DNA of 64,000 nt. Origin: Rhizophagus irregularis (taxonomy: Eukaryota). Position 1 is the stretch's first letter; each line of letters opens with the position of its first letter. Made by a program: the position numbers and the translations under genes. The stretch is taken from the NCBI RefSeq assembly GCF_026210795.1, contig NC_089429.1, positions 868,001 to 932,000 on the forward strand, written 5' to 3'. This document shows, one piece after another, positions 2,134 through 59,256 of the stretch. The notes below the pieces were generated by a model, which was given only the letters and a program-made list of their open reading frames with translations, was not told the origin of the DNA and made no database searches.

Positions 2134-4737
2134 TTTATTTATTTATTTTATGTGAAGCCGGACAGACTATTAAACAGGACATATACCACACGTGAGTTAT
2201 CCTACTTCTAGCTATCATCTATCACCAGGGCGGACCCAAACTTCTTTAAAAATGTTGGAACCAGCCTGATCCTCCTCCACTACCGAAAGAAGAACAGGAA
2301 CCACAATTAAAAAGTGAACTAATTAACCCGTATTTTTCTTTCAACCATCAAGGTCACCACCTGTAAATACTGTCATAGGTGGAATGATTCACACTGTTTG
2401 TAATTGTTAATATCTATTTTAATACGAACCAAAAAAATTCAAAAAATGAATTACAAAATATAGAAACTAAACTATTTCAAAATACGAAATTTAAAAATTA
2501 GGTCTATATTAGCGGGTAAGAAGTCTTCTTCTTTAGTATCCCTACAATCGAAAGTACAAATTTTTTTTGTTAAAGGTGTAAGATCTCCATAATAATTATA
2601 GTGATTATGTCTGGCGCGATGCTTTTTTGGGCGACATTCTATTATTTTCGTGTCATCGGAGGTATCACTGAGATCATCTTTTACGTATTGAATATCATTT
2701 GGGCGAATAATAGCGCAGTACGGTTTTAAAGGGTAGTGTTCATCCCTGTATTGTTGTCCAAAATCTGTTATCAAATTGTTGAGATGTCTTGAAGCGACTG
2801 TTCGTTTGTCGTTGCTTTTCTTCGTAGATGCTCCATACGCAAAATTGCGAATACTGGCCATACGGTCATCAAAATTATCATTCATACGAGTAAAAAACTT
2901 TATAGCATTAATACGTCTAAGGTAATGTTTGGCGGAGGTATTATGATCCTTAATGTCTTTAATGACATTTAACCTTTCATTAAGACGATCACGAACTCTG
3001 ATCTCACTGATGCGATCTTCATCTAAACCTAGCATATATGCGTCTCTCAAGGATAGCTGAATTGTAGAGTCTTGTAATAAAAGTACGGCATCTATGTATT
3101 CTGATGCACCTTTACCATAATGTTCGTCAATAAGATTTGCGATATACCAATCCCTATAAGAGTTTTCTGATGTATCATCCCTGCCATTGTTGGCTGAAGA
3201 GTCATCCTCTTCATCTGAATTCTGAATCTTGATGACACTGCGTGATGCAGGAGTAATGTGAGGAGGAAGAATCCTATCTTCAGAAAGATGTAAAAGAGCG
3301 CAGTTCCGATCGTATGGAAAACGGAATAAGGGAACGGTTGGGAGATGAAGGATCCGTGTATAAATCTTTTGATACAGATGAAAAAGGAACTTCCTTTGAT
3401 TCGCAAGTTTAATCTTGTGGCAGAGTTTAAGGGCCATCCTAGATTTAGGTTTATTACCATTGAAAATACGTTGACAAGATCGGTCAAAATGAGCTTTTTG
3501 CCGTGCAGCAGTACGTAAATTAGAACTTAAAATGCAAGAAAAGTTCTCATAAATCTTGGTATACATAGGACCAGTAGCCTTGTTAGGGGGTAAAATTGAG
3601 TCAAGGTTGTGTGCTTCATAACGCGTTGTATAAGAGATGCCCAATCGATTCGAAAAAATCTTTTGCCTTGAGTTATTGTTATATTTCTCGTAAATAATGT
3701 TGGCGTGAAAACTTTTGTGATGAATAATATTGATCTCAGGTGCTGATGTTGCCTTATCCTCTGAGAGTGTGTTTTTTTCTTGAGTGATAGCCGAATGGTG
3801 TTGGATGCAAGCGTGTCGATTAAAATTTTTAACAAAAGGGCACGGTATATGGCATGGTGTTGTTTTTTGATGAGGAAACTTTTTTGTAGGTAGGTGATTA
3901 CAAGCTACATAGATACCAAAGTGAAATCTGTATCGTTTATAAGAGAAGTTGAAAAAAGTTTTGGTAATATTGTTGCTGCACGTGATTTTTCCTTCACGTA
4001 ATGCTATCAGATTGATTCTATCTAACAACTTGAGTCGTATCATGTTAAAAAATTTGTTCTGAATACGCCGAGGAATGACTCGTTGATGTAAAAAAAAGTG
4101 CGTGAGGCATTTCGATATTTGAAATCGATGATTAGGTAATTTGCTTGTGGAATAATACCGAATTGGGGTTGATAACATATGATGATCGTTTATGTATATT
4201 TTAAGGTGAATTTCATTGGTGTCTGGTATTTGATCGACAACCTCAAAAAAGAAACTTTTTGAACGCCTACATTCATAGATCTTATTATAACCTGCTTTGG
4301 ACGCAGCAGTCACATGAAATTTTTTGAAAGAGACCAAAAAAGAGAAGGTCGAAAGTATTGGTGAGGGTAAAGGAGCTTTGACTATGATAGTCGGAAGTGC
4401 GTTATCCTGTGGTTTAATATTCATCCTTAAAACTTTATCTTTAGAAAGTCCGCCTTCAGGAATGTTTCTTCTGTTATCGAAGTGTACATCCAACTGCGGA
4501 TAAGGTTCCAAAGGTTCATATGAGGCCAAGGAAAAGTTGGTATTTTTGTTGTTTGAAGATGACATAGTCCCTTAATATTGGGATAAGATAAGAATAAAAC
4601 CTTGTATGAGAACCAAGACGCCCAACAGGGCCTTTTTCCCCTTAAAGTTTTCGTGAAAAACTATAGAAAAATAACCAAGCGCAAAATACTGCGGAAAACT
4701 AACAAAATAAAAAAAAAGGGGAAAGAGTTTTTTTTTT
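2134..4737 (-). mobile_element. Full-length retroposed, RT-less protein-coding element, copy A
   Basis: 16-bp direct repeat TAACCAATTACAGTAT at 2118-2133 and 4738-4753. Minus-strand 3' end ...CTTCACATAAAATAAATAAAAATA; 5' end A-run+CTCTTTCCCCTTTT. Termini and ORF are homologous to 42788-45443. Confidence 0.85.
2472..4565 (-). CDS. 697-aa basic protein of unknown function encoded by element copy A
   Basis: Intronless ORF, more GC-rich than its flanks. Paralogous to 43344-45272 (38/54 identities in the KFHVT...SxPI block). Candidate Zn ligands CNH...C...RHACIxHH. Confidence 0.85.
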   Translation of the reverse strand: MSSSNNKNTNFSLASYEPLEPYPQLDVHFDNRRNIPEGGLSKDKVLRMNIKPQDNALPTIIVKAPLPSPILSTFSFLVSFKKFHVTAASKAGYNKIYECRRSKSFFFEVVDQIPDTNEIHLKIYINDHHMLSTPIRYYSTSKLPNHRFQISKCLTHFFLHQRVIPRRIQNKFFNMIRLKLLDRINLIALREGKITCSNNITKTFFNFSYKRYRFHFGIYVACNHLPTKKFPHQKTTPCHIPCPFVKNFNRHACIQHHSAITQEKNTLSEDKATSAPEINIIHHKSFHANIIYEKYNNNSRQKIFSNRLGISYTTRYEAHNLDSILPPNKATGPMYTKIYENFSCILSSNLRTAARQKAHFDRSCQRIFNGNKPKSRMALKLCHKIKLANQRKFLFHLYQKIYTRILHLPTVPLFRFPYDRNCALLHLSEDRILPPHITPASRSVIKIQNSDEEDDSSANNGRDDTSENSYRDWYIANLIDEHYGKGASEYIDAVLLLQDSTIQLSLRDAYMLGLDEDRISEIRVRDRLNERLNVIKDIKDHNTSAKHYLRRINAIKFFTRMNDNFDDRMASIRNFAYGASTKKSNDKRTVASRHLNNLITDFGQQYRDEHYPLKPYCAIIRPNDIQYVKDDLSDTSDDTKIIECRPKKHRARHNHYNYYGDLTPLTKKICTFDCRDTKEEDFLPANIDLIFKFRILK

Positions 4738-5016
4738 TAACCAATTACAGTATATTTTATTGTCTGGAGGACGATATCAAAAAATTTGTGGTCACGGTTC
4801 ACCCACGTGATCCTCAGCCAATAAAATCGCCTCCCATTTCCTAGTTATACAATTTAGCCTTATTATTTATCTTCATTATATTTCACCAATTTTTAACAAG
4901 CTATTATTTAAGCTTAAGAAAAAAATATTAATAAGCTTATTTGAAAATGAGAACGAATAATTTTATGTAGAAATCGGAGTATTATACGTTATGAACTATA
5001 ATACTATAACCATTAG

Positions 5017-5159
5017 GGTATTAGGACATTTCGCCGAAAGCCATTTCGCCGAAAAATAATCTCTGGCCTGAGTTATTTATAATTCTGCATAATGTTGGCC
5101 CTATTTTTCGGCGAAACGTCCTTTCGGCGAAATGGCTTTCGGCGAAATGTACCGTAACC
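5017..5159. mobile_element. Small MITE with internally repeated TIRs (possibly Mutator-like)
   Basis: Inverted arms ACATTTCGCCGAAAGCCATTTCGCCGAAA / TTTCGGCGAAATGGCTTTCGGCGAAATGT. Imperfect 9-bp flanks AACCATTAG / TACTATTAG. Confidence 0.65.
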
Positions 5160-5242
5160 TACTATTAGAGATGTTAGCAATCTGAAATGCGAATACATCG
5201 CTAGTACTTAAAATATTGTAATTAGTTATATATTGACACTTT

Positions 5243-5343
5243 ATAATGATTATTCTGGAAATAATCCATTGATTCCTCATAATGATTATCCTGGAAATAA
5301 TCAATCAATTTCTCATAACAGTTTTCTGGAAACAATCTATTGA
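5243..5343. repeat. About 3 copies of a ~36-bp degenerate tandem repeat
   Basis: ATAATGATTATTCTGGAAATAATCCATTGATTCCTC-like units. Confidence 0.6.
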
Positions 5344-5366
5344 GTGAAATATGTCTTCGTCAATTT

Positions 5367-5578
5367 AGGACCCCGAAATATACATAAAAGGGTCAGGTCA
5401 GAGTTTGCGTATAATGAGTCAAAAAATCATGTAGATCATTCCTTTTATGGATAATTCCAGCCAAAATAATATTTCCTAATTTAGATAATGGCTGAAATTA
5501 TCGTAATTCCGGCCCTGAAAGAATGCGTATTTTGGACCACTTCTGGACCTGACCTCTACATATATATTTCGGGGTCCT
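5367..5578. mobile_element. 212-bp MITE sharing termini with the P-like transposon at 49988-54640
   Basis: TIR AGGACCCCGAAATATA at both ends. Perfect 8-bp TSD GTCAATTT (5359-5366, 5579-5586). Confidence 0.9.
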
Positions 5579-7627
5579 GTCAATTTCATTTAAATTATTC
5601 TAGGCTTACACCTTTTTGATTTATAATTTACTGCGCCTGCGATAAATCATAAGAATTCAGAGATTTTTTTTTTAGTTACTATTCCCTCCAAAGTATCAAC
5701 TATAGTCTTAACCTCAAAGTATCATAAATTTCAAATTATTTTCATTAAATAATAATAAAAATTTAATTCTTAAATTATTTTTATATTTTGTTGTTTTAAT
5801 CAATATTTATCTATCAAATAAGGATTTATTAAAAAGAAAAAAACTTTATTACATTCAGTTTGTTACGTCATTATCCAAACATTTATTTTGTGATTAATTA
5901 GCATTGTATAGCCAAATTATTGAACGTAATATCTACTAGATATTTATTAAAATAGCATTCGGAATTATTTTTCTTAAAAGATTTAACGCATGATTCCAGA
6001 AACAACATTCTTGTACAATCACAATAAAATCAAATAGACTACCAGTTGTTTCATTTTTAATTAGGATTTTTTTTCTTTATAAAACATAGAACGTGATATG
6101 AGGGAATCAAAAAAAAGTTTAGGAAATATAGTAAAGTATTACGGCATGATATAATATAAATGTATGGTACGATTAATAATTTACAAGTACGAGCGGGCAT
6201 GATGTTAATCGTGCTAGAAATTAGTAAATTATTAACTATTGATGCTATAATCTGATGATAGAATTGAATAAGACAATCAAAGTAAGGAAAAATGTTACAA
6301 AAAAAAATTAATATAAGCATTTAGAAAGTTAAAGTTTCAACTCCGAATAAAAAAATTAAGTTAGAGTTGAAACAAGTATTAATAAATAATTTAACTATAT
6401 CAAGCTTTAGAAACTTTTTTGATAAAAATAATGGCAATTTTGCATTAGACAATTAGATAACAAATTTTTGCATACTTACATGCTTAAAATTATAATATCA
6501 ATTATAATAATGTCAAATAAATAAAGTTTCAATTCATTATTTCATCATAGATGAAAATGATCAACATTTTTAACATTTGTAGAGAGAACTAACTTAATAC
6601 ATTTATAAATCATTCAAATATAAACTTGTATAAATATTATAAATATTTTATATATATAACATGTTTCGTATAAAACCAATACGATATGATCAGTCAATGG
6701 ATGATATCATAACTGTAACTGTGGAACGCAACTATTTTAATAATACTGAAAGTTTGATCATCCTTTTAAATGAAAAATTTTTTTGCAATTTTAAATGTTT
6801 CTTTTAAAAAAAATTTTTAAGTCCATAATTTGGTTTAATATAACAAAATTAATAAAATGCGGAATAAAGGAATGAAAATGTAAAAACATCTGCTAAGTGA
6901 AATATAAATTTTATAAAGTTCATCAAAGTTTAGAAAGTGATTTAAATACTACGTTAATTATAAATTTTACTCATAATCATATTTTTTTCAAAAGAACTTT
7001 CTGAATTCTTTGGGATGACTTAGATGACTTACCCTGAGATTTACATTTTAACCAGAAGATTCTAGTAAAAAAATTGAACTTGTGATAATAACATAACGAT
7101 AACGATAACGAAAATACTCCATAAAGCCCCATAATGTTCATTTTTACGTTACAGTATTTGTTAGTAATGCACGTATTATTATCTAAAAAATTTATCTTTT
7201 GTTACAGATTTTAAAGTTTTAATTCTTTCGGAAAAGTATATAGCACAAATCACGAATTTAGTCTAAAAGAGTAATTCTCAATGCCGAATTTTTTTACTTT
7301 TAGAAGTTGGAATTCCAAAAAATTTGGATCTTTTCGACAACATGATTATATTTTAAACACTGCACTTAACAATTAGTAAATAAACATAAAAAATGTGTAT
7401 ATTTACTAGCAGTTATCAACAAAAAATATTATTTGTTTATTTCTTATGAATCTATTTTAAATAAATCTTTTAAAGCTATTAATGACCAATATCGGCAAAC
7501 AATGCTATTACTTTGATATACAATACTTATAAAAAAAACAAATGAAATAAATGAAATAAATTTTATATCTATAACAGTATTTTGCTTATTTATTTTATTT
7601 AAACATTTAAGCAAAAATATTCTCAAT

Positions 7628-10600
7628 TTACTTTGCATGAATTTGTTCTAATCTATTTTGAGCATTTTGATTTCCTTGCAATGCAGATTGTTTATACCAG
7701 TAAATTGCTTGATTTATATCTTTAACAATCACTTCTCCATTCTCATACATAAAAGCAAGATTATATTGAGCTATACTAATATTTCCTAAATCTGCTGATT
7801 TTTGAAATAATTCAAATGCCTTTTTTTCATCAATTTCAGTTTCAATTCCTTTTTTATAACAATTACCTAAATTATTCATTCCATATGCATTTCCTAAATC
7901 TGCTGATTTTTGATATAATTCAAATGCCTTTTTTACATCAATATTAGTTCCAATTCCTTTTTTATAACAATTACCTAAATTATTTATTCCACCTGCATTT
8001 CCTAAATCTGCTGATTTTTGGTATAATTCAAATGCCTTTTTTTCATCAATATCAGTTCCAATTCCTTTTTTATAACAATTACCTAAATGATTTATTCCAC
8101 CTGCATTTCCTAAATCTGCTGATTTTTGAAATAATTCAAATGCCTTTTTTTCATCAATATCAGTTCCAATTCCTTTTTCATAACAATTACCTAAATTATT
8201 CATTCCATATGCATTTCCTAAATCTGCTGATTTTTGATATAATTCAAATGCCTTTTTTACATCAATATCAGTTCCAATTCCTTTTTTATAACAATTACCT
8301 AAATGATTTATTCCACCTGCATTTCCTAAATCTGCTGATTTTTGAAATAATTCAAATGCCTTTTTTTCATCAATATCAGTTCCAATTCCTTTTTCATAAC
8401 AATTACCTAAATTATTCATTCCATATGCATTTCCTAAATCTGCTGATTTTTGATATAATTCAAATGCCTTTTTTACATCAATATCAGTTCCAATTCCTTT
8501 TTTATAACAATTACCTAAATGATTTATTCCACCTGCATTTCCTAAATCTGCTGATTTTTGAAATAATTCAAATGCCTTTTTTTCATCAATATCAGTTCCA
8601 ATTCCTTTTTCATAACAATCACCTAAATTACTTATTCCAGTTGCATTTTCTAAATCTGCTGATTTTTGGTATAATTCAAATGCCTTTTTTACATCAATAT
8701 CAGTTCCAATTCCTTTTTTATAACAACCACCTAAATGATTTATTCCACCTGCATTTCTTAAATCTGCTGACTTTTGATATAATTCAAATGCCTTTTTTTC
8801 ATCAATATCAGTTCCAATTCCTTTTTTATAACAACCACCTAAATGATTTATTCCACCTGCATTTCCTAAATCTGCTGACTTTTGATATAATTCAAATGCC
8901 TTTTTTTCATCAATATAAGTTCCAATTCCTTTTTTATAACAATTACCTAAATTATTCATTCCACTTGTATTTCCTAAATCTGCTGATTTTTGATATAATT
9001 CAAATGCCTTTTTTTCATCAATATCAGTTCCAATTCCTTTTTTATAACAATCACCTAAATTACTTATTCCAGTTGCATTTCCTAAATCTGCTGATTTTTG
9101 ATATAATTCAAATGCCTTTTTTTTATCAATATCAGTTCCAATTCCTTTTTTATAACAATAACCTAAATTACTTATTCCATTTGAATATTCTCTTTCAGCT
9201 AATTTTTTAAATAATTCAAAAGCTTTATCATCATCTTTATAAACACCATTCCCATGTATATAACAGCAACCAAGGTTATATTGTGCTATAATATTTCCTG
9301 AATTTGCAGCTATCTGATATAATTCAAATGCCTTTTTTTTATCAATATTAATTTCAATTCCTAAATAATTAAAATCTCCAAGTAAAACAATAGAATTTGA
9401 ATGATTTTGATTATTTAATAACCAAATATAAATTTCCTGTGAAGTCATATTATGATTATTAAGATAATTATAAATACATAGTCTTTCTAATTCTTCATAT
9501 TCTACGCCTGCCTTATCAGAAAGTTCAACAATTTCATCAACCATCACCTTAAAATTATTATTTGATGATATTGAAGAATCTATTTCTTTAGTATTCATCT
9601 TGTTAAATTCTTGAATAAATTTGGATAATTCCCCATGTGATGAATTATTTATAGGATCTTCAAAAGCATTCAAATCGAGTTGTTGTTTACTGGATAATTG
9701 GTTTGTATAAGAATCATTTGCCCGAAAATCTTTTATAATCATGTTATTATTATTCTTCAGAATAATTGCATTTAATTTAAAAACCACCTGATTGATAGTT
9801 GGACGATTATCTGGTTCATTATTCCAACAATCTAAAAAAAATAGATAGAATTAATTTAACATTAATATAAACATAAAATTAATTATTAATTATATTTACC
9901 AGTATAAATATTCACATAATCTTCGGGTGTATCAGGAATGGGTGTCTCTCTAAGGCCTTGTGATATATTAATAGCTAAACAAACGTCATATGGTTTACCT
10001 TCAGTATAAAAAGGAGGATTGCTACTAGATATCTCCCATAAAAGTACTCCAATACTATAAATATCACTTTTTTTATTTAATTTATAATCTTGATTACTGA
10101 AACTTTTTGGGTCAATATAAGGAATTACTCCAAATAATTTCGTTGAAGAAAGGTTGGATGATTCTTCAATTCTTTTTGATAAACCAAAATCTGCTAATTT
10201 AACTATATTTTGATGAACTAATACATTTTTGGAATGCTATTAATATTATTAAATACAATAAATTTATTAATTACAATTCAACAACAAACATGAAATAACA
10301 AAATGTAAACAAATGAATTACCAAATCACGGTGAATAATTCCTTCATCGTGTAAGCATAATATAGCACAAGCCAACTGAAATGCCATATTAAACTTATTA
10401 TTCCAAGTAAGATTATCAAAATGTTCCTTCAAATATTCTCGAAGAGTACCTCCATTTGCATATTCCATTACTAACCAATATTTTTTTGAATTATCAACCT
10501 GATTTTCTTTGTAAAAAAAAAATAAATAAAACAATAAATTTATATTTTACAATCAAATTATGCATGAAAAGAAAGTATATTGTACCTGTTGCAATACCAC

Positions 10601-12270: not shown

Positions 12271-12373
12271 TTACTTAAAAAAACACTATATAAATGCTGT
12301 AATTTCACCTTGATAATTTTTACATAATTTCACTTTGAAATTAAATTTAATATTTAAAAATAATTTATTAAAT

Positions 12374-14629
12374 ATGGCAGATGATAGTAGTTATATTCTA
12401 CCTTCAAGTGATGATGACTTTAGTGAAGAAATTACTAATGAAATGGTCCAAATACCAGAATTACCAGTAGCTACAAGTGAAATAGAACAAATAAATGTAA
12501 TTAGTATACCTGACTCAACAGTTCAAATATCAGCTAAATTACAAACAAAAGTAAGTAGTTGGGTATGGAAATATTTTATTAAAGATTATAATAATAAAGG
12601 TGAAATACGTGCATATTGTCAATTTGTAATGGAAAATGGAGATAAATGTACAAAGAATTATAAATATGATGGATCTACAGGAAACCTTAGTAGTCATATT
12701 ATTAAACATGGAATTATACCACCTACAGCAGCAGAAAATTTACCTGCTGCTGAAATTAAATCAAAGCCTATACAATCTATTGATAATATTGGACAAAAAG
12801 AAAAGGAAGAATCTACATTACGATGGATTCTATTGACAACACAACCCCTTTCAACTGTAATTCACAAAGCCTATATTGAACATATGCATATCATAGATCC
12901 AGAATTTATAGTTCCTGGAGAGAGGAAAATTAGAATGATGATTGCTCAAAGTTATGGATATAATAGAAACAAATTAAAGCAATTTTTAAAATCTGCCCAA
13001 TCCATTTCTTTGACCACTGATTTGTGGTCTTCTAGGTCAAAACATGGTTATTTAGGTTTAACAGCAACTTGGATTAATCAAAATTTTGAAATAACAGATA
13101 TTTTACTTGAAATATCCTATTTTCCAGCACCACATACTGCAGATAAAATTGCACAAACTATTAAAATGATTATCCAAAAATGGGAAATTGAAAACCTTAT
13201 AGTATCAATTACAACTGACAATGGTGCTAATGTAGTAGCTGCTATTCGTGAATTAGCACCAATTGAAAGGTTTTCCTGTGCAGCACATACTTTACAATTA
13301 GCTATTGGAAAGGGTTTAAAACTTGTGGAAGATTTAGCAATACGTGCAAGACAGTTAATTAATTTTTTTTCAACTCAAAAACAGATTGAACGATTAGTTA
13401 AAATACAAAAAGATAATGGTTATGAGGAGCAATTACATTTAATACAAGATATTCCCACTAGGTAAATAAAAATTTTAAATCTTTAATTTTGTTTACAAAT
13501 TACAATATAATGCTAATATATTTAATTTTATTTCAATTATTTAAGATGGAATTCAACTTATTTAGCATGGGATCGTCTTATTTTCCTTCAATGTGCTATT
13601 CTTCAGCTTAATGTAAATTTATCTTGTTCTTTAATACGTGAAGAAAAAGCTGATAGTATCAAATTGAAAAAAATTATGTTGAGTGATAATGAATGGGAAT
13701 TACTAGATGAATTATGTAATATTTTGTCACCATTTGAAAAAGCTACACGAGATTTGTCTGGAAATACTTATGTTACATTAAGTCAAGTGGTTCCTATTAT
13801 TACAAGACTTACAAATTCTTTAAATCCATCTGGTAATTTATATGAAGAAGAACCTGATGATAGTTTTAATGATTTAGAAGAAGAAAATTCAACTAACCAG
13901 CAAACTAATTATGATAATATTAGAGAAACTTTAGAAAATGTAAAGAAAAATATTTACAGAAGTTTGAGATACTATTGGAAAATACCAAACGAGTTTGGTA
14001 TTATGGCAGCACTTTTAGACCCAAGATATAAGAATCTTGATTTTATTTCTGATGATAGTATAAAGAGAAAATTTCATTCTACTTTAAGAACACGATATGA
14101 CCAATTAAAATGGGATATAAGTCAGCAAAGTATTCCATCATCACCTACAACTGTTACTTCTGCTGAAAGTTTAATTGCTGGAAGTTCAACTCCAAGTAGA
14201 TCTTTACGTGACCATAAAGCAAGACGTGAACAAAAAGCAAAAGAAGTATTTCAAAGAACAGAAATCCCTACATCATCAATGGAGGATGAAATTACAAGCT
14301 ATCTTCTTATGCCAATTGCAAGGGAAAATAAAAATCCATTAGATTGGTGGAGAGTAAAACGTGAAATTTTTCCAATTCTCTCTTTAATTGCACAAAAGTA
14401 CTTAGGTATTCCTGCTACCTCTGTAGCTTCTGAGCGACTTTTCTCTGATGCAGGAAATCATATTACATCAAAAAGAAATTCATTGGACCCTGGCCTATTG
14501 GGAAAAATGATATTTTTAAAGCGTAATATGCAAACAATGGATCATATTAATGTGTTTCCTCCAGATTTAGATGTGGAAAAGAGTAATTCAGAAGAATATT
14601 TATCTGAATGTGAATTTGAGGAATGGTAA
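12374..14629 (+). CDS. hAT transposase with BED zinc finger (723 aa; exons 12374-13461, 13546-14629)
   Basis: SWVWKYF..C..C..STGNLSSHIIKH BED finger; TTDLWS, TTDNGAN, CAAHTLQL, TR|WNSTY across the intron; PATSVASERLFS dimerisation motif. No stops after splicing. Confidence 0.93.
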
Positions 14630-28957: not shown

Positions 28958-30260
28958 CAGTACCCGGGTCTATACTTGCCGCCCAAATAAATGGGATGGG
29001 ACTTGGGAGTCCCAACCCATCCCATCCCAAATCCCATTTAATATATAATAATATTTATTTATTTTATGTGAAGCTGGAGGATAATATTTATCCTATAATT
29101 GCCAAAAATTAAAAATCACGTGACTCCGGCGAATAAATAGCAAAAACCTTTTTTTTAACATAAAATTTTTTCAATATAATACTCTTAAAAGATTTATTTT
29201 TTAATTCTTTATAATTTTTTTGTTTTGTAAAGTATTATCCTATTAAGCATTCATATTATTAATATTATTATCGTATAATCTGTAATTAATCAAAAGATAT
29301 CATATCTTATAGTGTATATGCTAATAATTTAAATTTAAATTAGAAAACTAAGTCCTTTTTTATTGAATGCCAAGCCATTTTAATTAAATACTAAGCATTT
29401 TTTTGTTAAATACAAAGCCATTTTGTTAAATCCTAAGCTTTCATTTTTGTTAAACACTAAGCCACTTTTGTTAAATGCTAACATTTTTTGTTAAATACGA
29501 AGCCTTTTTTGTTAAACACTAAGCCTCTTTTGTTAAATGCTAACATTTTATGTTAAATATTAAGTCATTTTTATTAAATTTTAAGCCTTTTTTTATTAAG
29601 TACCAAGCCACTTTCTGTTAAATATTTAATTCTTAATTAATCAAAGTAGAATAAATCAGCTAAAAATAAAAATTCTGATTAATATAATATCAGTTACTAA
29701 TCATTACAAATCAGTATTTTTCTGATTTATAGTTATTGCAATTTATAATTGATAGCAGATATTGATGTTAATTAAAGTTCTAATTTATAGCTAATTCTAA
29801 ATTAATCCTAATATGATTTTTTACTTCAATTAAAAGCTTTTTTGTTTAATAAAATTTGGCTTAATACTGATAATTTGGCTTAGTTTCAAATACTTGCATC
29901 ATCATTAAATAATGGAATTGACTTATTTGATGATAATGACCTTGAAGTTAATTTTGAAATATTAATGTGATCGAAGAAATTGTAGATTTAGAAGGAATAA
30001 ATAATCAAGAACTAGAAATTACAAATTTTATTGATTTATCAATAAGTTTATTAAATAATAATAATAAGGATGAAAAAGAAGATGAAGTAAGTATAATGAA
30101 CCATGGTCCATGAAGACTTAAATTTTGATGTTGATGAATTAATAAATAAGTTTGATGAATCAGTTTAATTAGTTTTCTATATTTATTATTTATTATATAG
30201 ATAAATTTTTTATCATTTTAATAGATAGGTTAAAATAAAGTTTAAAATATTACATTTTGT
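28958..30260 (+). mobile_element. Decayed, internally deleted DNA-transposon remnant (hAT-like architecture)
   Basis: Quasi-palindromic TGGGAT/ATCCCA cluster at 28989-29039. Array of TTTTGTTAAATACTAAGCC-like units at 29350-29625. Acidic coding remnant ending NFDVDELINKFDESV*. Termini not resolved. Confidence 0.35.
29059..29080 (-). mobile_element. 22-bp 5'-truncated retroposed insertion related to the 3' tail of elements A/B
   Basis: TTATTTTATGTGAAGCTGGAGG matches TTATTTTATGTGAAGCCGGACA of copy A. Flanked by 11-bp direct repeat ATAATATTTAT (29048-29058, 29081-29091). Confidence 0.7.
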
Positions 30261-34448: not shown

Positions 34449-34963
34449 TACTTTTTATTTTCTTCTTTATTGAGACAAATGATATCATTTATAATTTATC
34501 GATTATCATTGAAGTTTTCTTTTGAGAATTGTAAGAATAAATAGAAACATGAAATAAAAATTATGCATGGTGCTAAATCAAATATAATTATTATGGTATG
34601 TATCGAAAAATAAACTTTTAACCAATAAATTTTAAAGATTCATATGATCGTTTAAAAATTCGGATAGGATTAACCCGGATAAAACCTAATTTAATGAATG
34701 TATCCGGATTAACGATCCGGATTTGCATCCGAATTGCCTAAATAGATTTTTGTCACAGTGACGTGATTTTAGGACACGATTACTAAGGGGGGGGGCATCC
34801 GGAATTTACTTAAATTAACTAAAAAAAGGAACGATTTACAAATTTTTTTATTGCAGGTCATATTGTTGCCTTTTTATGGAATATTTAATAAATTGTACTC
34901 GAAAATTGATAAATTTGCATCCATTGTGAAATGAAAGCAAACTCTTTTTTTTCTTCAACCAAC

Positions 34964-36583
34964 ATGACATGTTCAAAAATATTTTCAGGAGATTTACCAG
35001 AATTAACAAATGAAATTATACAACATTTTAGAAAAGATTTTTCAACATTACATTCGTGTATTTTAGTTAATAGATTTTGGTGTCGTTTAGCGATTCCATT
35101 ATTATGGGAAAGTCCTTTTTCAATTCCTACTCGAAATTGTCATTATATTGAAGTTTACTTACGCCATTTAAATGATGAAGGTAAAGCAAAATTTAATGAA
35201 TATGGAATCAATAATGATTTATTAAGTTCAAATACATTATTCAACTATCCCAGTTTTATCAAACATTTAAATATAAGTAGCATTTATTTTTCTATTAAAG
35301 AGTGGGTTGGTACTTTGGTGATTAAGAATAATGAAAAACTAGAAAAATTAGTTTATAGATCATTATTTGAAGTGTTCCTTGAAAATGAAGGAATTTTAAA
35401 TTCTTTTGAAATTGTGATGTTTATGAATATTGTAAATTTTAATGATACTATGGAATTAATTTTACAAAATCCAAATTTTATATATAATATTAGAAATTTA
35501 AAATTTCATACCTATAATATTTCATTTCAAAACATCGTTCCTTTTTTAAAATTTTTATGTTCTAATTGCAATTTAATCACATCACTTCATTTTTATTTTT
35601 ATTTTGCTTTATCTAATATTAATGATTTTTCATTAATTGAAAAATATTTATCACAGATAATTATGTCACAACATAATCTCAAAATAATTTCATTTGGATC
35701 TAGTAATGCTATTTTATATCACCCATTTTTATCATTAAAAAATTCTAATTGTTCAAATACTTTAAATACGATTATATTTGATAATATTGATTTTAAAAAT
35801 ATAATTACTATTTTAAAAAAAGTATTCGATCATCTGAATGTTTTAGATTCTATTCATATCCTTTATTGTGATTCTTTGAATTCCGATTTTGTTCAACAAA
35901 TCATTAAGGTTATTAAACCTTTTAAATTGAGATCTTTATTTATGAAGGAAATATTATACATTGAATCATTACATTTGTTATTACAAAAATGTGGAGATTA
36001 TTTAGAAAATTTTGAATTTGGATCTATGCGTGAAGAATATGAAGAATCAAGACAACAATTTCTTAAATTAATTATGAAATATTGTACAAAAATTAGACGC
36101 TTTACTTCAACTATGCCTGATGATAATAATATTTATCAATTAATTGAAAATACTAAACAAACCATTAATTATCTTACTATTGATAATTATTATGACGAAT
36201 TAGGTTCAATTGTATTACAAAACTTGGGTCAAGTTCTTCCTTTTAAATTAGAATATTTACGATTATCACTTTCATTTAATTCAAATGATTTTGAAATATT
36301 TTTAAAAAATTCTCAAAATACTTTTATTAAGAAATTATTAATTAGTAATATGATGCAAAATGAAAGTGTAAGTATTTTATTTTATATAAAAAAATATATT
36401 ATGAGAAGGGAAAGGGTTAAATATTTGGCTTTTTCGGAATTTTTTCCTGATATTGATACGGATGAAGAATTGTTTTTTTTAGAACATGAAGTAAATGAAT
36501 TTAAATTACATAATATTATAGTTCAAAAATATTCTGATTTATATATTTCTGTATATAATATTATTTACAATTTTAATAAGTAA
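34964..36583 (+). CDS. F-box-like / LRR protein (~539 aa from MTCSKIFSGDLPEL; an in-frame upstream ATG lies at 34931)
   Basis: LPELTNEIIQHFRKDFSTLHSCILVNRFWCRLAIPLLWE. Paralogue of 59257-60900, where the equivalent upstream ATG is out of frame. Confidence 0.87.
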   Translation: MTCSKIFSGDLPELTNEIIQHFRKDFSTLHSCILVNRFWCRLAIPLLWESPFSIPTRNCHYIEVYLRHLNDEGKAKFNEYGINNDLLSSNTLFNYPSFIKHLNISSIYFSIKEWVGTLVIKNNEKLEKLVYRSLFEVFLENEGILNSFEIVMFMNIVNFNDTMELILQNPNFIYNIRNLKFHTYNISFQNIVPFLKFLCSNCNLITSLHFYFYFALSNINDFSLIEKYLSQIIMSQHNLKIISFGSSNAILYHPFLSLKNSNCSNTLNTIIFDNIDFKNIITILKKVFDHLNVLDSIHILYCDSLNSDFVQQIIKVIKPFKLRSLFMKEILYIESLHLLLQKCGDYLENFEFGSMREEYEESRQQFLKLIMKYCTKIRRFTSTMPDDNNIYQLIENTKQTINYLTIDNYYDELGSIVLQNLGQVLPFKLEYLRLSLSFNSNDFEIFLKNSQNTFIKKLLISNMMQNESVSILFYIKKYIMRRERVKYLAFSEFFPDIDTDEELFFLEHEVNEFKLHNIIVQKYSDLYISVYNIIYNFNK

Positions 36584-38745
36584 CTTGTTACACAATTTAA
36601 TAAACTTGTACTGAATGTTGTATCTTAAAAATATAAGACGTATTACAATACAATTGAATGTAAATATAATGAAAATCTCTAGAGTACTAACAAGAGTTGA
36701 AGAACAGACTAGTTCCTGTAACATATATGATAATATGTGGTTATTTATGAAACATAAATATCAACTAACAATCGCCTTGAAATGTCTGCTAACTCCTGTA
36801 CTAGATTTAATAGTAATTGAAGCCATTTTAGATAAATAAACAAAAAGTAAGATTTCTTCTTTTTTATTGCGCATTCCACTATAAAATTTGAGAATATAAT
36901 AGTGTTATAGTTATAACTAAAAGCGGTAAAATAAGCTACTACTGTATTATATTATATTAAATATTTATCTTAAATTGGCCAGTACGTATAATTTAATATA
37001 ATTCCCATTATATAAAAAATAAAGGTCAAAAAAAGAATTTCAAATAAAGCATTTCATCAAATATTTCCGATATTAACTTTAACGCTTTATAACGTAATAT
37101 TCCTTCTGTCTTTACATAAATACATAATCCTAAAAGATTTTTAAGTGACGAAAAAAGACATCCGTTTCTATTTTAATAAACCTCAATGAATGATGTAAAT
37201 AAAACATTTAAGTTAATTTTTTAAGTTAATTTTTTTTAAAGTAATTTACCCATGTTTTCATTTTATGATATTTGATACGAAAACAAAATATTTTTTGTCG
37301 AAATTACAATTTTGGTTGTTAATTCTTGAGTATTACAAATTATTTATATAAAAAATGTAATGTGATTTGTCATCACAAAGTTTAATTTATTAAAATTTAG
37401 TACTTGTAAAATTAAGCTTATTAAATGTAAGAAATTTTACTTTTAACATGTGAATCACTTGATTTTTACCCGGGAATTGTAATGTGATATTTATTTGAAT
37501 AAATATTTTTTCATCAAAATTTAAACCTAATGACTTAACATGTAATTAGTCTGACTGATAGTTGTATTTACAGCTTATTCAAATTATTATAATTTGTTTT
37601 TTTACTTCCCATAGCTTATGACTTTATTGACGCAAATGTGCTTATCATTTAATGATTTAATTTCAAACTTAAATTGAATAAGAGATGATGCTCAGAAGGT
37701 GTGAGAGTACCCAAATAATATTTTTTTATCAATGTCGACGCTTTATAATATATAATTATATTTACTGTGCATGATAATTTCAGCACTTTAAATAACCAAG
37801 GGAGTTTTCACTAATTAAGTGGTTTTAAATTTTTAATGTATTTAGAAACATTCAGAATTTGAATTGTACTAATAAATTAGTTCCGTCAACGAAAATTTCC
37901 TTATTTTTTTTGTGATGATATTTAATATTCATTGTAAAATGCTTTATTTTATAAAAAATTATTACATATAAATCTGTAAAATTATTTTCAACGTAATAAT
38001 GTCATCATCAATAAATTTCAATGGTTGGTAAAATCAAATGTACTATATTAATTCATTATAAATCTATATAAGAAATTCCTGTATTTTATAAGTAAAATCG
38101 TTATAACAGCTATTTTTTCATTGAAAATTATTTATCTGTTATTGATAAAAAACGAATAAAAAAATCGTAATGTTAACTTTTAAATAAAATTTGATTATTA
38201 CAATAATATTTCATGAGACTTTTATTCAATAACAACTTCAATAAATAATTTCAAAATATTGTAGTTTATTATGTTATATATTGTATGAAGGTTTGATAAA
38301 AAAAAAAAGAAAGAATTTTTAATTCTTTTATTTTAAAACATGTTTCACAGTTAAGTAAAATTTTACATTAATTTCTCAAATATTAAATACTCAAATTTTT
38401 TTTATTTTTTTTTTGCATTATCCATATTAGGCTATAACAGCTATTAATTCCTTCATAATTTCTATAAATTGTACGAAAATAAAAATCCGGTCTGTCAGAT
38501 GATGATCTTAGTTCCGAAACAATATTTTATTTTGTACGAGGCTTATATTATACAATTACTAAATTAATAATGGAGTTTGCCTGTTTACCTAAAAAGGATA
38601 TTTTTTATTTGTAGCATTTCATTATATGTGTAATAGTTAATGTGGTATCACAACTGTCACATAATAAAAGGTCAATCAGCGGGTTTAACGGTTACACCAT
38701 TTTTTTCGATTTCTAACAAATTGTTAAACACACTTTATAATAATT

Positions 38746-41132
38746 ATGTCCACTATTCGAATAGAAATAGTTCAAGCTGCACTTATGAGAGCATTTACAT
38801 TAATTGATTATAATATTCACAAAGGTTTTCATAAACATTATGAATTTATGCAACAAACAATTCTTGCTGATAATTCTCTTACAGAAGAAGAAAAAACTGA
38901 AGCAATAAGATTAAATAATAAAAATTATGATCGAGATAAAATTCGTTTGAATTCAGGAACAAGAAGAATTTGTGAAAATTGTAATCAAAAATGTTTAGCT
39001 ACACTATATTGTGAATATTGTGTTCAAAGTTATTTAAAAGTTAATTTTTCAAATTGGACTTCTGGAAATAATGATATTGATAATTTAATAAAAAATTGTC
39101 AAATGGAAACACTTATACCAAATAAAATAATTGAATGGATCCCATATAATAATTTACAAAATATTGAATATCTAACAAGAGGTGGTTTCTCTAAAATTTA
39201 TACAGCAGATTGGATTGATGGAAGATATAAAGAATGGGATTCTAATGAACGAAAATTAATAAGATATGGATCTCATGAAGTAATACTTAAACAATTAGAA
39301 AATGTTGAAAGTGCAAGTCAAAGTTGGTTTGAAGAGGTTTGTAATCTAAAAAAATTTAAGATATTTTCTTTATTTATAAGAAACTAAAATTCAAAATCAT
39401 CTTTTATATATAGGCTAAATCACATTTAACAATAAGTAACAAATATGCTGAGATTGTTCAATGTTTTGGTTTAACACAAGATCCATCAAATGGAAATTAT
39501 ATGCTTGTTATGAGGAAATGTGATGTAAATTTAAGAGAATATTTACAACAAAATCATGATCAATTTATATGGAAAGAAAAAATTAGAATTACTTTTTTAA
39601 TAATTAATGCATTTTATTGGATTCATGAAGAGAATTCAATTCATAGAGATTTGCATTCTGGAAATGTATTATATTCACAGTTAAATAATTCTTGGCATAT
39701 TAGTGATCTTGGATTTTGTGGTCCTGCAAATAAATCATCAACATGCATATATGGAAATCTTCCTTATATTGCTCCTGAAGTTATTAATGGAAAAGAATAT
39801 ACTTTTAAATCTGATGTTTATAGTATTGCAATGCTTATGTGGGAAATTTCATCTGGACAGCTACCATTTATAAATTATGAACATGATTGTAATCTTGCAA
39901 TTAATATTATTAATGGTATGAGACCAAAAATTATATCAGAAATTCCTTCAGAATATAAAAGTTTAATGGAACAATGTTGGGATGCTGATCCATTAAAAAG
40001 ACCTGATATTAATACACTTAGATTTAAGATGAATGAAATTATGTCATATTATCAAAATAAACCAAATGAATTACCTCAACTAAAAGTAAAAATGGATAAT
40101 GTAACAAATAATAATATTAGTAGTAAACTATTTACAAGTAAAATTCATAAATTTGAAAATTTGCCAGAACCAAAAAATGCAACGAAAGGTATGGCTATTT
40201 AATTATTATTGACTATTTATTCTTTTATTTAATATAATATTTATTTTAATTAATTTATAATAGAAGAACAAGAAGGTAACGTAAAGTATAATTCTTTAGT
40301 ATAAAGTTTTAATTAATAATAAATTGAAATAATCTTTTTTTTAAATAGCATTTTATACTAGTAGTAAAAAATATGATTTTAGTAGTATTTCTGATAATTG
40401 TAAGTATATATTTTTAAAATAACATTGGATTTTAACTCTTAATGATGAAGATATCGCCAAAGATTTTCCAACTTTAAACAACAAATCACTCAAAAAAATG
40501 GTAAATAAACAAATAAATATAATGAACATAATAAAATAACAAATGATTTATTTTTATTATAGCTAGTATTTTTAGTACAATAAGTAATCAGTATACGTCA
40601 ATTAATTTTAAGAATCGTAACGAAGGTAATTTATTTTTATATTAAACTTTTATAATAAATAAATACTAATTTGTATTTTAATTTTATATAATGATAAAGG
40701 ATCCAGATTATTTAAAAAATTGAAAATGGAGAATGGTAAGTAAAAATATTTATTAATTTTTCCATTCTAATTTTTTTTGTACAATAACACTATTAAGTTG
40801 AAGAAAAGATAAATAATTGTTAAATTTGATTTATTTAATAATAGTAGATGTTCAAAATGACTATGATGAGAGAGAAATAATGCAACAACAATCAAATATT
40901 GATATTAATGGTAGGAATATAATTATTTATGTATATAATAGTTAATTAATTCTATTACTCTAATTTATCTTATTTTTATAGATGAAGTACAAAATAATCC
41001 AAAACTTCATTCAGAGGAACAATATGAATTTGAAATTCCTGATGGTTCGTCTATTCTTTCTATTCTTTAATATAAAATAATAAAATTTTTTTATTTATTA
41101 ATTAATTTTTTTTTTTTATAGATGGATTTTAA
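38746..41132 (+). CDS. TKL-like protein kinase with a Cys-rich N-terminus and several small 3' exons
   Basis: Exon 38746-39336 (CENC..CLATLYCEYC, WTSGNNDID, IEWIPY, GGFSKIY). Exon from 39414 (HRDLHSGN, SDLG, GNLPYIAPE, SDVYS, CWDADP..RP). Micro-exons end NNPKLHSEEQYEFEIPD|DGF*; 3' exon boundaries are approximate. Confidence 0.85.
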
Positions 41133-41839: not shown

Positions 41840-42420
41840 AACCCTAAAAGAAAACCCAATAAAGAGAAGACCTAGACAGAGAAGATAAACCTAAAAAAAA
41901 GATGAAAAAAATATAAGATGAAACATTACCCACACTCCCAACCAACATACCTAAAGGAGGACGTAAAGAAAAAGGCCTAAAAGAAGACCTAATGAAGAGA
42001 AGACCTAAATATAGAGAAGATAGACCTAAAAAAAAAGATGACGAAAAAAAATAAAATGAAACACCACACTCCCAAACCCACACTCCCACACTCCCAACAC
42101 TCCCACACTCCCAACACTCCCAACACTCCCAACACTCCCAACCCGCACTCCCACACTCCACTACCAACACTCCCAACCCGCACTCCCAGACAGAGAGAGG
42201 ATAGACCTAAAAAAAAAAGATGACGAAAAAAAAATAAAACACCACACTCCCAAACCCACACTCCCACACTCCCACACTCCCAACCCGCCCACACTCCCAC
42301 ACCCCACCCACACTCCCAACCTACATACCCAAAGGAGGACGTAAAGAAAAAGGCCTGAAAGAAAACCTAATGAAGAGAAGTCCTAGACAGAGAGAAGATA
42401 GACCCGACGAATAAAAAAGA
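41840..42420 (-). repeat. Compound repeat: duplicated AGAGAAGATAGACCTAAAAAAAAGATG blocks interleaved with (CTCCCACA/CTCCCAACA)n microsatellite
   Basis: Directly visible. The minus strand is G-tract rich and carries GTATGT donor-like and TTTTAG acceptor-like signals. Confidence 0.8.
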
Positions 42421-42787
42421 GGTGGTATTGAGGGTATATAAATACTTTTTTCAAATACATAGTGACTAATAATGAGATAATATCTTTCCGTTTCTTCCGA
42501 CTGTTTTTTACAATCACAAAACTTGCTTTTCTATAAAATATTGGAAGAATGAAAAAAAAAAGTGTCAAAATGACGTTAGAGTTGTCAAAATGACTAATAA
42601 TTGAATCATAGAAAAAATCATATGTTCATGATCAATAAAAATAGACTTTTCGTACTACTCATATTGGTGGCACATCAAGTATTTTCCTATAGTATCTTTG
42701 TAATCTTGCGCAATACAATTGTTTAACAATAAGGGGCTGACTGAACTAGGAAAGAATAGCAGATAATCGCATTATTAATTATTATTT

Positions 42788-45443: not shown

Positions 45444-45691
45444 TCGCATTATTAATTATTATTTTTATTTATCTGTAAGGCGTCAACCACTTTATACAAA
45501 TCACGTGATATAATCTTATATTTACTAAGGAGTGGATAAATTATAATCCCGTCTCGCGACTCTCGCGTCCCATTCAAAATTACGAATCATAATCCCAAAA
45601 AATTCAAAATCTCACACTCATTATCCCAAAACTTATTATCTTTTTTTTTTAAAAAAAAAATTTTACATTATTATTTTTCTTTTAGATGTAA

Positions 45692-58818: not shown

Positions 58819-59256
58819 ATTGTATATAGTATAGGGAATATTTATACAAAGTTTCAAGTTTCGCCTACGCAGCCACGCGTATTCACCTTCGCCCATCAAT
58901 TTTTTTCCGATGACTTCATATCATCACACAATGATGCAATTTAATTTATTTTGTTATAATAATAATATGTTTAAATATGATTTTATAATGATTTTCATAA
59001 TATTTTTACTAATATTTTACCAAGTTATTTAAGAAATTCGTCATATGTTATATGTGATCGACAAATGATCTGCAAAGTATGTCTGAGAATAGATAACAAG
59101 AGATCGGCGTGCCGGAATTACTTGTGTTTATTATCAAAAAAAGGAACGATTCACATATTATTTTTATTTCTATTTGTAGTACAACATACGTTACGAAAAA
59201 TTAATAAATTTTGTTCCCAATTGTGAAATGAAAGCCGCTTCTCTTTCTTCGCCAAC

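Follow-up and report, generated by a model that had tools for sequence, protein, structure and literature searches.

A Conserved Two-Hairpin Module with a Probable Pseudoknot in the 3' Untranslated Region of Putative DUF8211 Retroposons of Rhizophagus irregularis

Two DUF8211-Encoding Units in the Analyzed Window

The analyzed window, a stretch of 64,000 nucleotides of the Rhizophagus irregularis genome (assembly GCF_026210795.1, contig NC_089429.1, positions 868,001 to 932,000 of the forward strand), is AT-rich (22–37% G+C) and harbors two diverged units, A and B, each encoding a member of the DUF8211 (PF26638) protein family. In the 3' untranslated region (UTR) of both units, a short RNA element, hereafter referred to as the module, had been predicted from the sequence to form a pseudoknot with an inserted hairpin (the original prediction), and this element is the subject of the present study. 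All coordinates of the units and modules refer to features on the minus strand.

Unit A spans positions 2134 to 4737 (2604 nt), its ends being deduced from the limit of its homology to unit B and from flanking direct repeats of 16 nt. The 16-mer (sense ATACTGTAATTGGTTA) has only two occurrences in the window, which flank the unit as the 3' copy of a target-site duplication at 2118–2133 and as the 5' copy at 4738–4753, the latter located directly before the A-run and the CTCTTTCCCC that open both units. Unit B, the second and diverged insertion (42788–45444, 2657 nt), was likewise delimited by the A/B homology limits and by direct repeats (3' copy at 42768–42787, sense AAATAATAATTAATAATGCG; matching 5' copy at 45445–45464), which were also found exactly twice in the window, at the ends of the unit; the length of this duplication is given as 17–20 nt, since its left edge overlaps the tail repeat. 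Each unit contains a single intronless and uninterrupted open reading frame (ORF). ORF A (2472–4565, 697 aa) matches a hypothetical protein from Rhizophagus irregularis DAOM 197198 with 100% identity, and ORF B (43344–45278, 644 aa) shares 34% identity with it overall and 44% in the core. Both units terminate in a (TAAA)n tail, ...CACATAAAATAAATAAATAA, a similar tail being present in L006, one of the metagenome relatives described below.

The units combine precisely terminal target-site duplications that differ in length, a 3' tail composed of short repeats, and an intronless body with an uninterrupted ORF. These features are those of elements without long terminal repeats (non-LTR elements) and were taken as marks of target-primed reverse transcription (TPRT). 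Judged by these features of the sequence, the host units are very probably retroposons. As opposed to autonomous long interspersed nuclear elements (LINEs), the units encode no recognizable reverse transcriptase (RT) or endonuclease, and an RT domain was found neither in their ORFs nor among the 34 further ORFs of the window. In combination with the retroposon marks, this led to the units being read as non-autonomous protein-coding retroposons.

Anatomy and Placement of the Module

The module is present on the minus strand at both predicted sites. The original prediction had assigned it a range of 73 nt (2323–2395 in unit A), of which the position was right and the 5' edge was not: the island of conservation reaches approximately 11 nt further in the 5' direction (to 2406 and 43124, respectively), resulting in a conserved extent of about 80 nt, namely 2327–2406 for copy A and 43045–43124 for copy B.

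Read in the sense direction, copy A begins with a 5' flank of 24 nt (CAAUUACAAACAGUGUGAAUCAUU; 2383–2406), which is regarded as single-stranded, its sequence being kept in all five module copies (two from the window and three from metagenomes) and a consistent pairing partner not having been found among them. The flank is followed by hairpin 1 (2357–2382), composed of the 6-bp stem CCACCU/AGGUGG (2377–2382 paired with 2357–2362; 43095–43100 with 43075–43080 in copy B) and a 14-nt loop, which contains CAGUAUUUAC in A and B and comprises the putative 5' strand of the pseudoknot, GUAUUU (2365–2370). Hairpin 2 (UGACC-UUGAU-GGUUG; 2342–2356) abuts hairpin 1 without any spacer and is succeeded by an A-rich linker of 6 nt (AAAGAA; 2336–2341), constant in length and nearly constant in sequence (AAAGNA in 5/5 copies), and by the putative 3' strand of the pseudoknot, AAAUAC (2330–2335), which is complementary to the loop strand and precedes an invariant GG (2328–2329). 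Copy B, scoring 103.3 bits with the covariance model R1 introduced below, is built in the same way from a 5' flank (43101–43124), hairpin 1 (43075–43100) with the pseudoknot 5' strand (43083–43088), hairpin 2 (CAACC/GGUUG; 43060–43074), the linker (43054–43059), and the pseudoknot 3' strand (43048–43053). The stem, loop, second hairpin, and tail of the original prediction were thus all recovered on the minus strand in both copies.

A pattern search with CCACCTNTNACAGTATTTACAGGTGG, allowing for up to three mismatches, returned exactly two occurrences in the window, compared to zero expected from 100 shuffles, and model R1 did not detect a third module copy within these 64 kb. In the self-BLAST analysis, the module (2322–2416 versus 43040–43135, 85% identity) represented one of only four alignable islands between the otherwise diverged units, the other three being the 5' UTR island (4658–4732, 82% identical to 45370–45444), a piece of the coding region, and the 3'-terminal block, in which a long predicted hairpin is followed by the ...CUUCACAUAAAAUAAAUAAAUAA tail (2134–2291, 81% identical to 42778–42934 in unit B). 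The spacers on either side of the module could not be aligned between A and B, so that the predicted island of conservation between unalignable spacers was confirmed. The distance between the stop codon and the module within the 3' UTR varies from 66 to 220 nt, and another 194 nt (A) or 257 nt (B) separate the 3' edge of the module from the 3' terminus of the unit.

The prediction that G-U pairs are restricted to the minus strand also proved correct, as the A/B differences in hairpin 2 result in U·G and G·U pairs on this strand and would produce A·C mismatches on the plus strand. The folding energy is unremarkable compared to shuffled sequences (z = 0.16 and 0.19 for the sense, −0.40 and −0.61 for the antisense strand), and structural support therefore derives from conservation and covariation rather than from thermodynamics.

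Covariation of the Two Hairpins

The covariation analysis covered five sequences from two sources, namely copies A and B and the copies L001, L006, and L002. The metagenome loci were obtained in a protein-based scan of JGI metagenome contigs, in which 6 out of 211 candidate stretches were confirmed; the proteins of the three relatives used here are only about 28–40% identical. Both metagenome loci reaching past the stop codon, L001 and L006, carry the module in the 3' UTR. In L001 (2933–3015), it consists of stem 1 CCACGU/ACGUGG, loop strand GCAUUU, hairpin 2 CAAUAAU/AUUAUUG, and tail AAAUGC, and in L006 (1021–1097), of stem 1 UGAUGC/GCAUCA with a 14-nt loop, hairpin 2 CAUU/GAUG, and tail AAAUAC.

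Copies A and B defined the structure, L001 and L006 were added to train the covariance model R1, which was built from these four sequences and represents the two hairpins only, and L002 alone was found by the model. An unfiltered R1 search over the window and the six loci revealed this one additional copy (L002:291–372, 34.1 bits, E 2e-4), featuring stem 1 CCGUAC/GUACGG, loop strand GUGUUC, hairpin 2 UUAAAG/CUUUAA, and tail UAACAC; beyond the known copies and L002, nothing was detected below E 0.25. For L003, L004, and L005, of which only the 5' parts were covered, a significant match to R1 was not found. The DNA pattern CATTCCACCTNNNACANNNNNNACAGGTGG yielded 0 matches in the metagenome, genome, and viral contig sets, and protein alignment A2 revealed no relative in the genome or viral contig sets.

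Across the five sequences, standard base pairs were present in 96.5% of 85 pair cells, compared to 74.7 ± 3.4% in shuffled alignments, none of which (0/500) reached the observed value, and alignments slid by one to three columns paired only 32–46% of the cells. Double-sided changes were detected in 13 of the 17 pairs, a number that was not equalled in any of the 500 shuffles. All six pairs of hairpin 1, with 100% of the cells paired, and all five pairs of hairpin 2 displayed compensatory changes; RNAalifold independently yielded both hairpins, with 11 out of 11 pairs compensated. Since every pair of both hairpins shows compensatory changes, the two hairpins are firmly supported, and it is almost certain from the alignment that they are real and conserved. 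All five copies agree in the 14-nt loop with its 6+6+2 layout, in the direct (zero-nt) junction of the two hairpins, and in the 6-nt AAAGNA linker.

Pairing is specific to the sense (minus) strand. The abundant hairpin 2 variants across genomic copies (2356 A>G in approximately 80%, 2354 T>C in 20–40%, and 2355 C>T and 2343 A>G in approximately 20–35%) are transitions that preserve pairing on the minus strand and would give A·C on the opposite strand. These variants derive from the contig mapping at 80% likeness, the list obtained at 3-nt resolution covering positions 2353–2362 only.

Further pairings and motifs were considered and rejected. A nested pairing of the tail AUAC with an upstream GUGU, as present in the minimum-energy fold of copy A, involves a segment that is missing in L002, is broken in L006, and is reduced to wobble pairing in L001. 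By eye, a long-range pairing of GUGUGAA in the 5' flank with a terminal UUCACAU contains a broken pair in B and lacks its counterpart in L006, and short motifs (an antisense PUF-like word and an AU-rich loop word) are not retained in L001, L002, or L006.

Probable Pairing between Loop and Tail

The putative helix between the loop of hairpin 1 and the tail is paired in 27 out of 30 cells. Two of its six pairs are compensatory, two are invariant, and the two end pairs are broken in some of the sequences (both in L006 and one in L002), a core of 4–5 bp being retained in all five. The double changes convert U-A to C-G in L001 (GCAUUU/AAAUGC) and A-U to G-C in L002 (GUGUUC/UAACAC), and these counts were not fitted, because the pseudoknot is absent from model R1, which found L002. 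When the substitutions of each sequence were placed at random over the 53 non-helix columns, a double change was obtained with P = 0.04 for L001 and P = 0.11 for L002. Based on the aligned copies, the loop-tail pseudoknot probably exists. An H-type geometry appears plausible, with the 6-nt A-rich linker having about the length needed to span the 6-bp stem 1 and with hairpin 2 inserted at the junction; the AAAGNA linker would then follow the minor groove of hairpin 1 in the manner of loop 3 in classical H-type pseudoknots.

Several results weigh against the pseudoknot. The column-shuffle control is weak, since 60 out of 500 shuffles reach two double changes, and alignments slid by −2 still pair 73% of the loop-tail cells. 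The duplex energies are modest, amounting to −4.2 kcal/mol in A and B, −6.2 kcal/mol in L001, and −4.7 kcal/mol in L002, and are equalled by shuffled tails in 3–35% of the trials (6% in A and B); in L006, the helix is reduced to four A-U pairs at 0.0 kcal/mol (96% of the trials). Together with the broken end pairs in L006 and L002, these values would suit two conserved hairpins without a pseudoknot, the invariant loop and the A-rich tail being single-stranded protein-recognition sequences whose complementarity is incidental in an A/U-rich RNA. Such an arrangement is nevertheless rather unlikely, as the sole two substitutions in the central loop, which occurred in independent sequences, are each matched in the tail (joint chance approximately 0.004), and as the constant 6-nt linker and the 6+6+2 loop layout in all copies fit a fixed three-dimensional fold. 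Of the predicted pseudoknot with an inserted hairpin, both hairpins hence stood with all pairs compensatory, and the loop-tail helix stood in part, with two compensatory changes, marginal statistics, and weak pairing in L006. The predicted pairing between loop and tail was accordingly found to be kept in additional copies through compensation in L001 and L002, but only as the four A-U pairs in L006.

Abundance of the Module and Indications of Transcription

To evaluate how prevalent the module is, Logan contigs from four genome runs were mapped to the 3' UTR with a likeness of 80%. In run X3, the summed word depth rises in a single step at position 2132, coinciding with the end of unit A, from 40–67 outside the unit (2100–2131) to more than 4400 (4,400–6,700 on the terminal 30 nt, high at 2132–2163). 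In the same run, values of approximately 2,000 were obtained on hairpin 2 and the tail, approximately 9,800 on hairpin 1, and 200–600 nearer the ORF. At 3-nt resolution, the depth of hairpin 1 ranged between 9,150 and 10,960 in X3 and between 74,000 and 90,000 in run X11, compared to 14–36 and 219–250, respectively, for single long contigs of the same runs, and in each of the six runs mapped, the word depth of the region peaked at hairpin 1. In total, 158 (X3) and 125 (X11) distinct contigs were mapped on the module. Summed word depth does not equal copy number, and its ratio, taken only as a sign of hundreds of copies, suggests a copy number of hairpin 1 in the hundreds per genome. Loose contig ends show that conservation mostly ends at 2328 and at 2395–2399 among the genomic copies, and the module is thus a self-contained island. 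The likely mobile nature of the host gene and the abundance of the motif had not been recognized in the original prediction.

Among the 24 runs listed, none on record as RNA was found to contain the unit. Contigs with the module were detected in two runs guessed to represent RNA (six in X18 and 33 in X19), and one X18 contig of 2588 nt has the module approximately 200 nt from one end, corresponding to the layout of unit A. With respect to transcription of the unit, these runs are suggestive only.

The DUF8211 Protein and Further Structures of the Units

All 76 relatives found for the DUF8211 protein carry the precomputed PF26638 annotation, nearly all of them originating from Rhizophagus species or Glomus cerebriforme. 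A profile search against 1.84 billion representatives (50% identity) identified 582 DUF8211 representatives at E ≤ 0.001; none of the best 150 of these exceeds 697 aa, and fused forms were not found among longer proteins. The local Pfam copy returned no family for ORF A or B, PF26638 itself included, the profile had 0 matches among PDB sequences, and the ESM Atlas yielded no usable match. With AlphaFold models of the whole protein (pLDDT 67.6) and of the core (residues 70–425, pLDDT 79.4), Foldseek detected no match at E ≤ 0.001 for either of them, and VIA-align assigned residues 543–632 only to generic helical hairpins (Z up to 7.0), the best value for the core being Z 3.6. Judging from these models, the protein appears to be without a known fold, a weak or missing fold match still being compatible with a very divergent enzyme.

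The terminal blocks of both units (2134–2240 in A, 42788–42893 in B) share the same long predicted hairpin, with the arms GAUGAUAGCUAG...GUAGGAUA / UAUGUCCUG...UAGUCUGUC. It is located about 25 nt before the (UAAA)n tail, a position in which the tails of stringent LINEs and of short interspersed nuclear elements (SINEs) carry their recognition stem-loop. Covariation between A and B was not detected in this hairpin, its z-scores (−0.7 and −1.1) are not significant, and the consensus fold of the terminal block from A, B, and L006 shows little covariation (3/19 pairs). At the opposite end, the 5' UTRs (4566–4737 and 45279–45444) have a common start, the A-run followed by CTCTTTCCCC, and, just upstream of the ATG, two small common hairpins in which, by eye, the differences keep the pairing (GCCC-NNNN-GGGC, and UCUUG/CAAGG in A versus CCUCG/CGAGG in B). 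The 5' flanks (4754–4770 and 45465–45480) represent similar A/T-rich targets (...CAGACAATAAAATAT... and ...ACAGATAAATAAAAAT...); they resemble the (TAAA)n tail of the element, which suggests tail-to-target annealing at integration.

Comparison with Known RNA and Retroelement Systems

A scan of the window against Rfam (release 15, 4227 models), which took in HDV-like (hepatitis delta virus-like), pistol, twister, and hammerhead ribozymes as well as the families of exonuclease-resistant RNAs (xrRNAs), yielded 0 matches at gathering thresholds, and 0 matches were obtained even at E ≤ 10 for positions 2100–2500 on both strands. The original prediction had described the topology as loosely reminiscent of HDV-like folds, which are nested double pseudoknots (P1, P1.1, P2, P3, and P4) with a catalytic C. 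The module resembles them in its compactness and in the pairing of a hairpin loop to a strand further downstream, and HDV-like ribozymes also occur in retrotransposons. However, the module features neither the nesting of P1 and P2 nor the P1.1/P3 arrangement, and HDV-like ribozymes sit at the 5' ends of elements, whereas the module resides in the 3' UTR. Considering the lack of an Rfam match and the different strand order, this likeness was not sustained, and an identity as an HDV-like ribozyme was rejected, with only two hairpins and one loop-tail helix being supported and no enclosing P1/P2.

The strand order of the module, i.e., the 5' strand of stem 1, the loop strand, the 3' strand of stem 1, an inserted hairpin, and a tail probably paired to the loop, is that of H-type or HLout pseudoknots with an embedded hairpin, and the A-rich third loop of the module (6 nt) is long enough for a 6-bp stem. 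This likeness refers to a structural class, and its known members (riboswitches, frameshift signals, and telomerase RNA) show no relationship to the module in sequence, host, or role. ENE-type triple-helix stability elements possess a U-rich internal loop within a stem, which clamps an A-rich tract; this identity was rejected, since both stems of the module are continuous, without an internal loop.

Among retroelements, the R2 protein of the zebra finch (R2Tg) recognizes a small pseudoknotted 3' UTR element, consisting of a P1 pseudoknot, a linker, P2, and an A-rich tract, to start TPRT (PMC12222951). The R2 element resembles the module as a small conserved 3' UTR element that combines two helical parts, the first one pseudoknotted, with a short linker and an A-rich tract, and in which the stems vary and the unpaired nucleotides are retained. 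In contrast to the module, the R2 element represents the last 67 nt of the RNA, its A-rich tract entering the RT active site, whereas the modules end at 2327 and 43045 and the units at 2134 and 42788, leaving 194–257 nt to the 3' end. Moreover, the A-rich tract of the module is the pseudoknot strand itself, and R2 encodes its own RT, while the DUF8211 units encode only DUF8211. Similarity between the R2 element and the module was not detected in sequence or by covariance models (Rfam at E ≤ 10).

Proteins of stringent-type LINEs recognize a 3' tail stem-loop that is common to their SINEs (PMC1636434, PMC4176376). Such tails (eel UnaL2/UnaSINE1 and zebrafish LINEs) share with the DUF8211 units a conserved 3' RNA structure, a short tandem-repeat tail, and target-site duplications of variable length, and non-autonomous elements use the stem-loop to borrow the LINE protein. 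Their stem-loop, described without a pseudoknot, is located directly before the terminal repeats, whereas this place is occupied by another conserved hairpin (2134–2240) in the DUF8211 units. The central domains of SINE superfamilies are likewise described as short non-coding islands kept between the body and the 3' tail across very diverged non-autonomous retroposons (PMC4758252). However, SINEs are described there as short and non-coding, with heads derived from tRNA or 5S RNA, in contrast to DUF8211 units of 2.6 kb with an intact ORF (650–830 aa), and it is the module that features a defined secondary structure with covariation.

Proposed Function of the Module and Alternative Explanations

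The module is the best-conserved part of the element, and its loop and linker sequences stay constant while the proteins drop to approximately 28–40% identity, which argues for a specific partner reading both shape and bases. The original prediction had offered a new ribozyme, an exonuclease-resistant RNA, or a protein-binding motif as possible functions; in the context of a retroposon with target-site duplications, protein recognition ranks first among these in likelihood and a ribozyme last. We propose that the module is a folded 3' UTR element of approximately 80 nt of a multi-copy Rhizophagus retroposon, that it comprises two hairpins and a likely pseudoknot, and that it would act as a protein-binding handle for the assembly of a ribonucleoprotein (RNP) and for TPRT; a probability of roughly 45% is given to this statement as a whole. 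The handle function itself, drawn by analogy with the retroelements described above, is to be seen as tentative to the same degree. According to this proposal, the unit would be copied through RNA by an RT supplied in trans, and the module would be bound by this enzyme or by the element's own DUF8211 protein, serving as the handle by which the element RNA is chosen for RNP assembly and TPRT. Possible donors of the enzyme would be the LINEs of R. irregularis, for which the families CR1-Zenon, L1-Tx1, L1-R1, R2-Hero, RTE-BovB, and I are reported in addition to SINEs (PMC11075540).

A number of findings speak against this proposal. Unlike the recognition elements of R2 and UnaL2, the module is not placed at the 3' end, and the separate terminal hairpin with the repeat tail would be a more obvious entry site for an RT. 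Given both points, a LINE enzyme is no more likely to be the binding partner than the DUF8211 protein itself (RNP assembly, cis-preference). A partner LINE carrying the module was not found within the window, the single-sequence folding z-scores are near 0, and the covariation rests on only five sequences from two sources, of which A, B, L001, and L006 are not independent of the model. Furthermore, L002 fits poorly with a simple 3' UTR placement, as 157 nt separate its complete module from the downstream start codon of a DUF8211 ORF (ORF start L002:529). In this locus, L002:1–38 repeats L002:335–372, the 3' half of the module, forming a partial second copy 334 nt before the complete one, and the first 20 nt or so after each module copy are similar and then diverge. 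The arrangement may represent a nested insertion into the 3' UTR of another unit, a tandem-module lineage, or an assembly artefact.

Small exonuclease-resistant RNAs of plant viruses share the general topology in which the loop of a hairpin is paired to a tail behind it, and the module could be an RNA-stability element, its compact knot stalling 5'–3' exonucleases or shielding the 3' part and leaving a stable fragment with the terminal hairpin and the tail. Such a role would agree with the conserved single-stranded 5' flank leading into the knot and with the position of the module upstream of the conserved terminal block. However, the inserted hairpin and the loop sizes differ from those of known xrRNAs, the Rfam scan at E ≤ 10 returned none of the xrRNA or other families, and there was no sign of a 3' fragment in the contigs, which cannot show RNA ends. 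A stability function is thus considered distinctly unlikely.

Post-transcriptional control of the DUF8211 mRNA (translation, nuclear export, or localization) by a host factor would be in line with a 3' UTR position at variable distance from the stop codon, and invariant loops in spite of the strong divergence of the proteins would suit a conserved host factor. It appears improbable, since elements of this type are rarely so strictly kept across hundreds of mobile copies, the Rfam scan revealed no known motif in the module, and L002 carries its module upstream of an ORF. Finally, a new self-cleaving ribozyme processing the element transcript is highly improbable: small ribozymes such as HDV-like and twister are common in retroelements, and the compact pseudoknotted fold with invariant unpaired nucleotides and the two tandem modules 334 nt apart in L002 would be compatible with one, but no ribozyme family matched at E ≤ 10, the strand order is unlike that of HDV-like and pistol ribozymes, cleavage at the module would leave the ORF without the 3' tail that reverse transcription requires, and the contigs from the guessed RNA runs continue unbroken through the module.

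Novelty and Implications

Structured 3' UTR signals of non-LTR retroposons are already known as a kind. The fold and its host, an RT-less coding retroposon whose protein seems to lack a known fold, are not described in the literature and databases searched. DUF8211 was not found in the literature searched, and the transposable element libraries of PMC11075540 may already hold a family consensus. About half of the R. irregularis genome is described as repeats, and two-thirds of its transposable elements are reported as unclassified (PMC11075540).

Together with its host unit, the module defines a large family open to annotation, with 582 protein representatives and a hairpin likely present in hundreds of copies per genome. 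As the best-conserved part of these RT-less coding retroposons is a small folded RNA, the module offers direct access to the question of how the copying machinery is recruited by non-autonomous elements, and its covariation is clean enough for a new RNA family model and for structure probing. In a bolder and rather doubtful interpretation, the module would be the signature cis-element of an undescribed superfamily of RT-less coding retroposons in arbuscular mycorrhizal fungi, exhibiting a new HLout fold with an embedded hairpin and bound by a novel-fold DUF8211 protein that captures a LINE RT; if true, some of the many unclassified repeats in these genomes would be explained by such elements. 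Alternatively, the fold would represent a new exonuclease-blocking or self-cleaving RNA.

Further Features of the Window

Beyond the two units, the window contains an ORF with 15 Sel1 repeats on the minus strand (7628–10546), which derive from a 108-bp tandem array (13 copies, 93% matches). Pieces of a protein-kinase domain adjoin this ORF, and the region resembles an expanded gene of the Sel1/kinase type; a further protein-kinase gene piece is located at 39414–40199, within 38728–40199 on the plus strand. Two adjacent ORFs on the plus strand (12317–14626), which contain the hAT C-terminal dimerization domain and weakly match the RNase-H fold of hAT, point to a hAT transposase, which is possibly split. 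Paralogous ORFs of approximately 550 aa without a Pfam family were identified at 34902–36550 and 59197–60864 (plus strand), their DNA being 83% identical over about 1.65 kb. Tandem arrays occupy 62605–64000 (61-bp unit, 21 copies, running off the end of the window), 54803–55895 (200/299-bp units), 29347–29624 (21-bp unit, 13 copies), and, just 3' of unit B, 41843–42404 (G/T-rich repeat). An ORF with a bZIP domain on the plus strand (1363–1659) and the 3' end of unit A lie approximately 460 nt apart.

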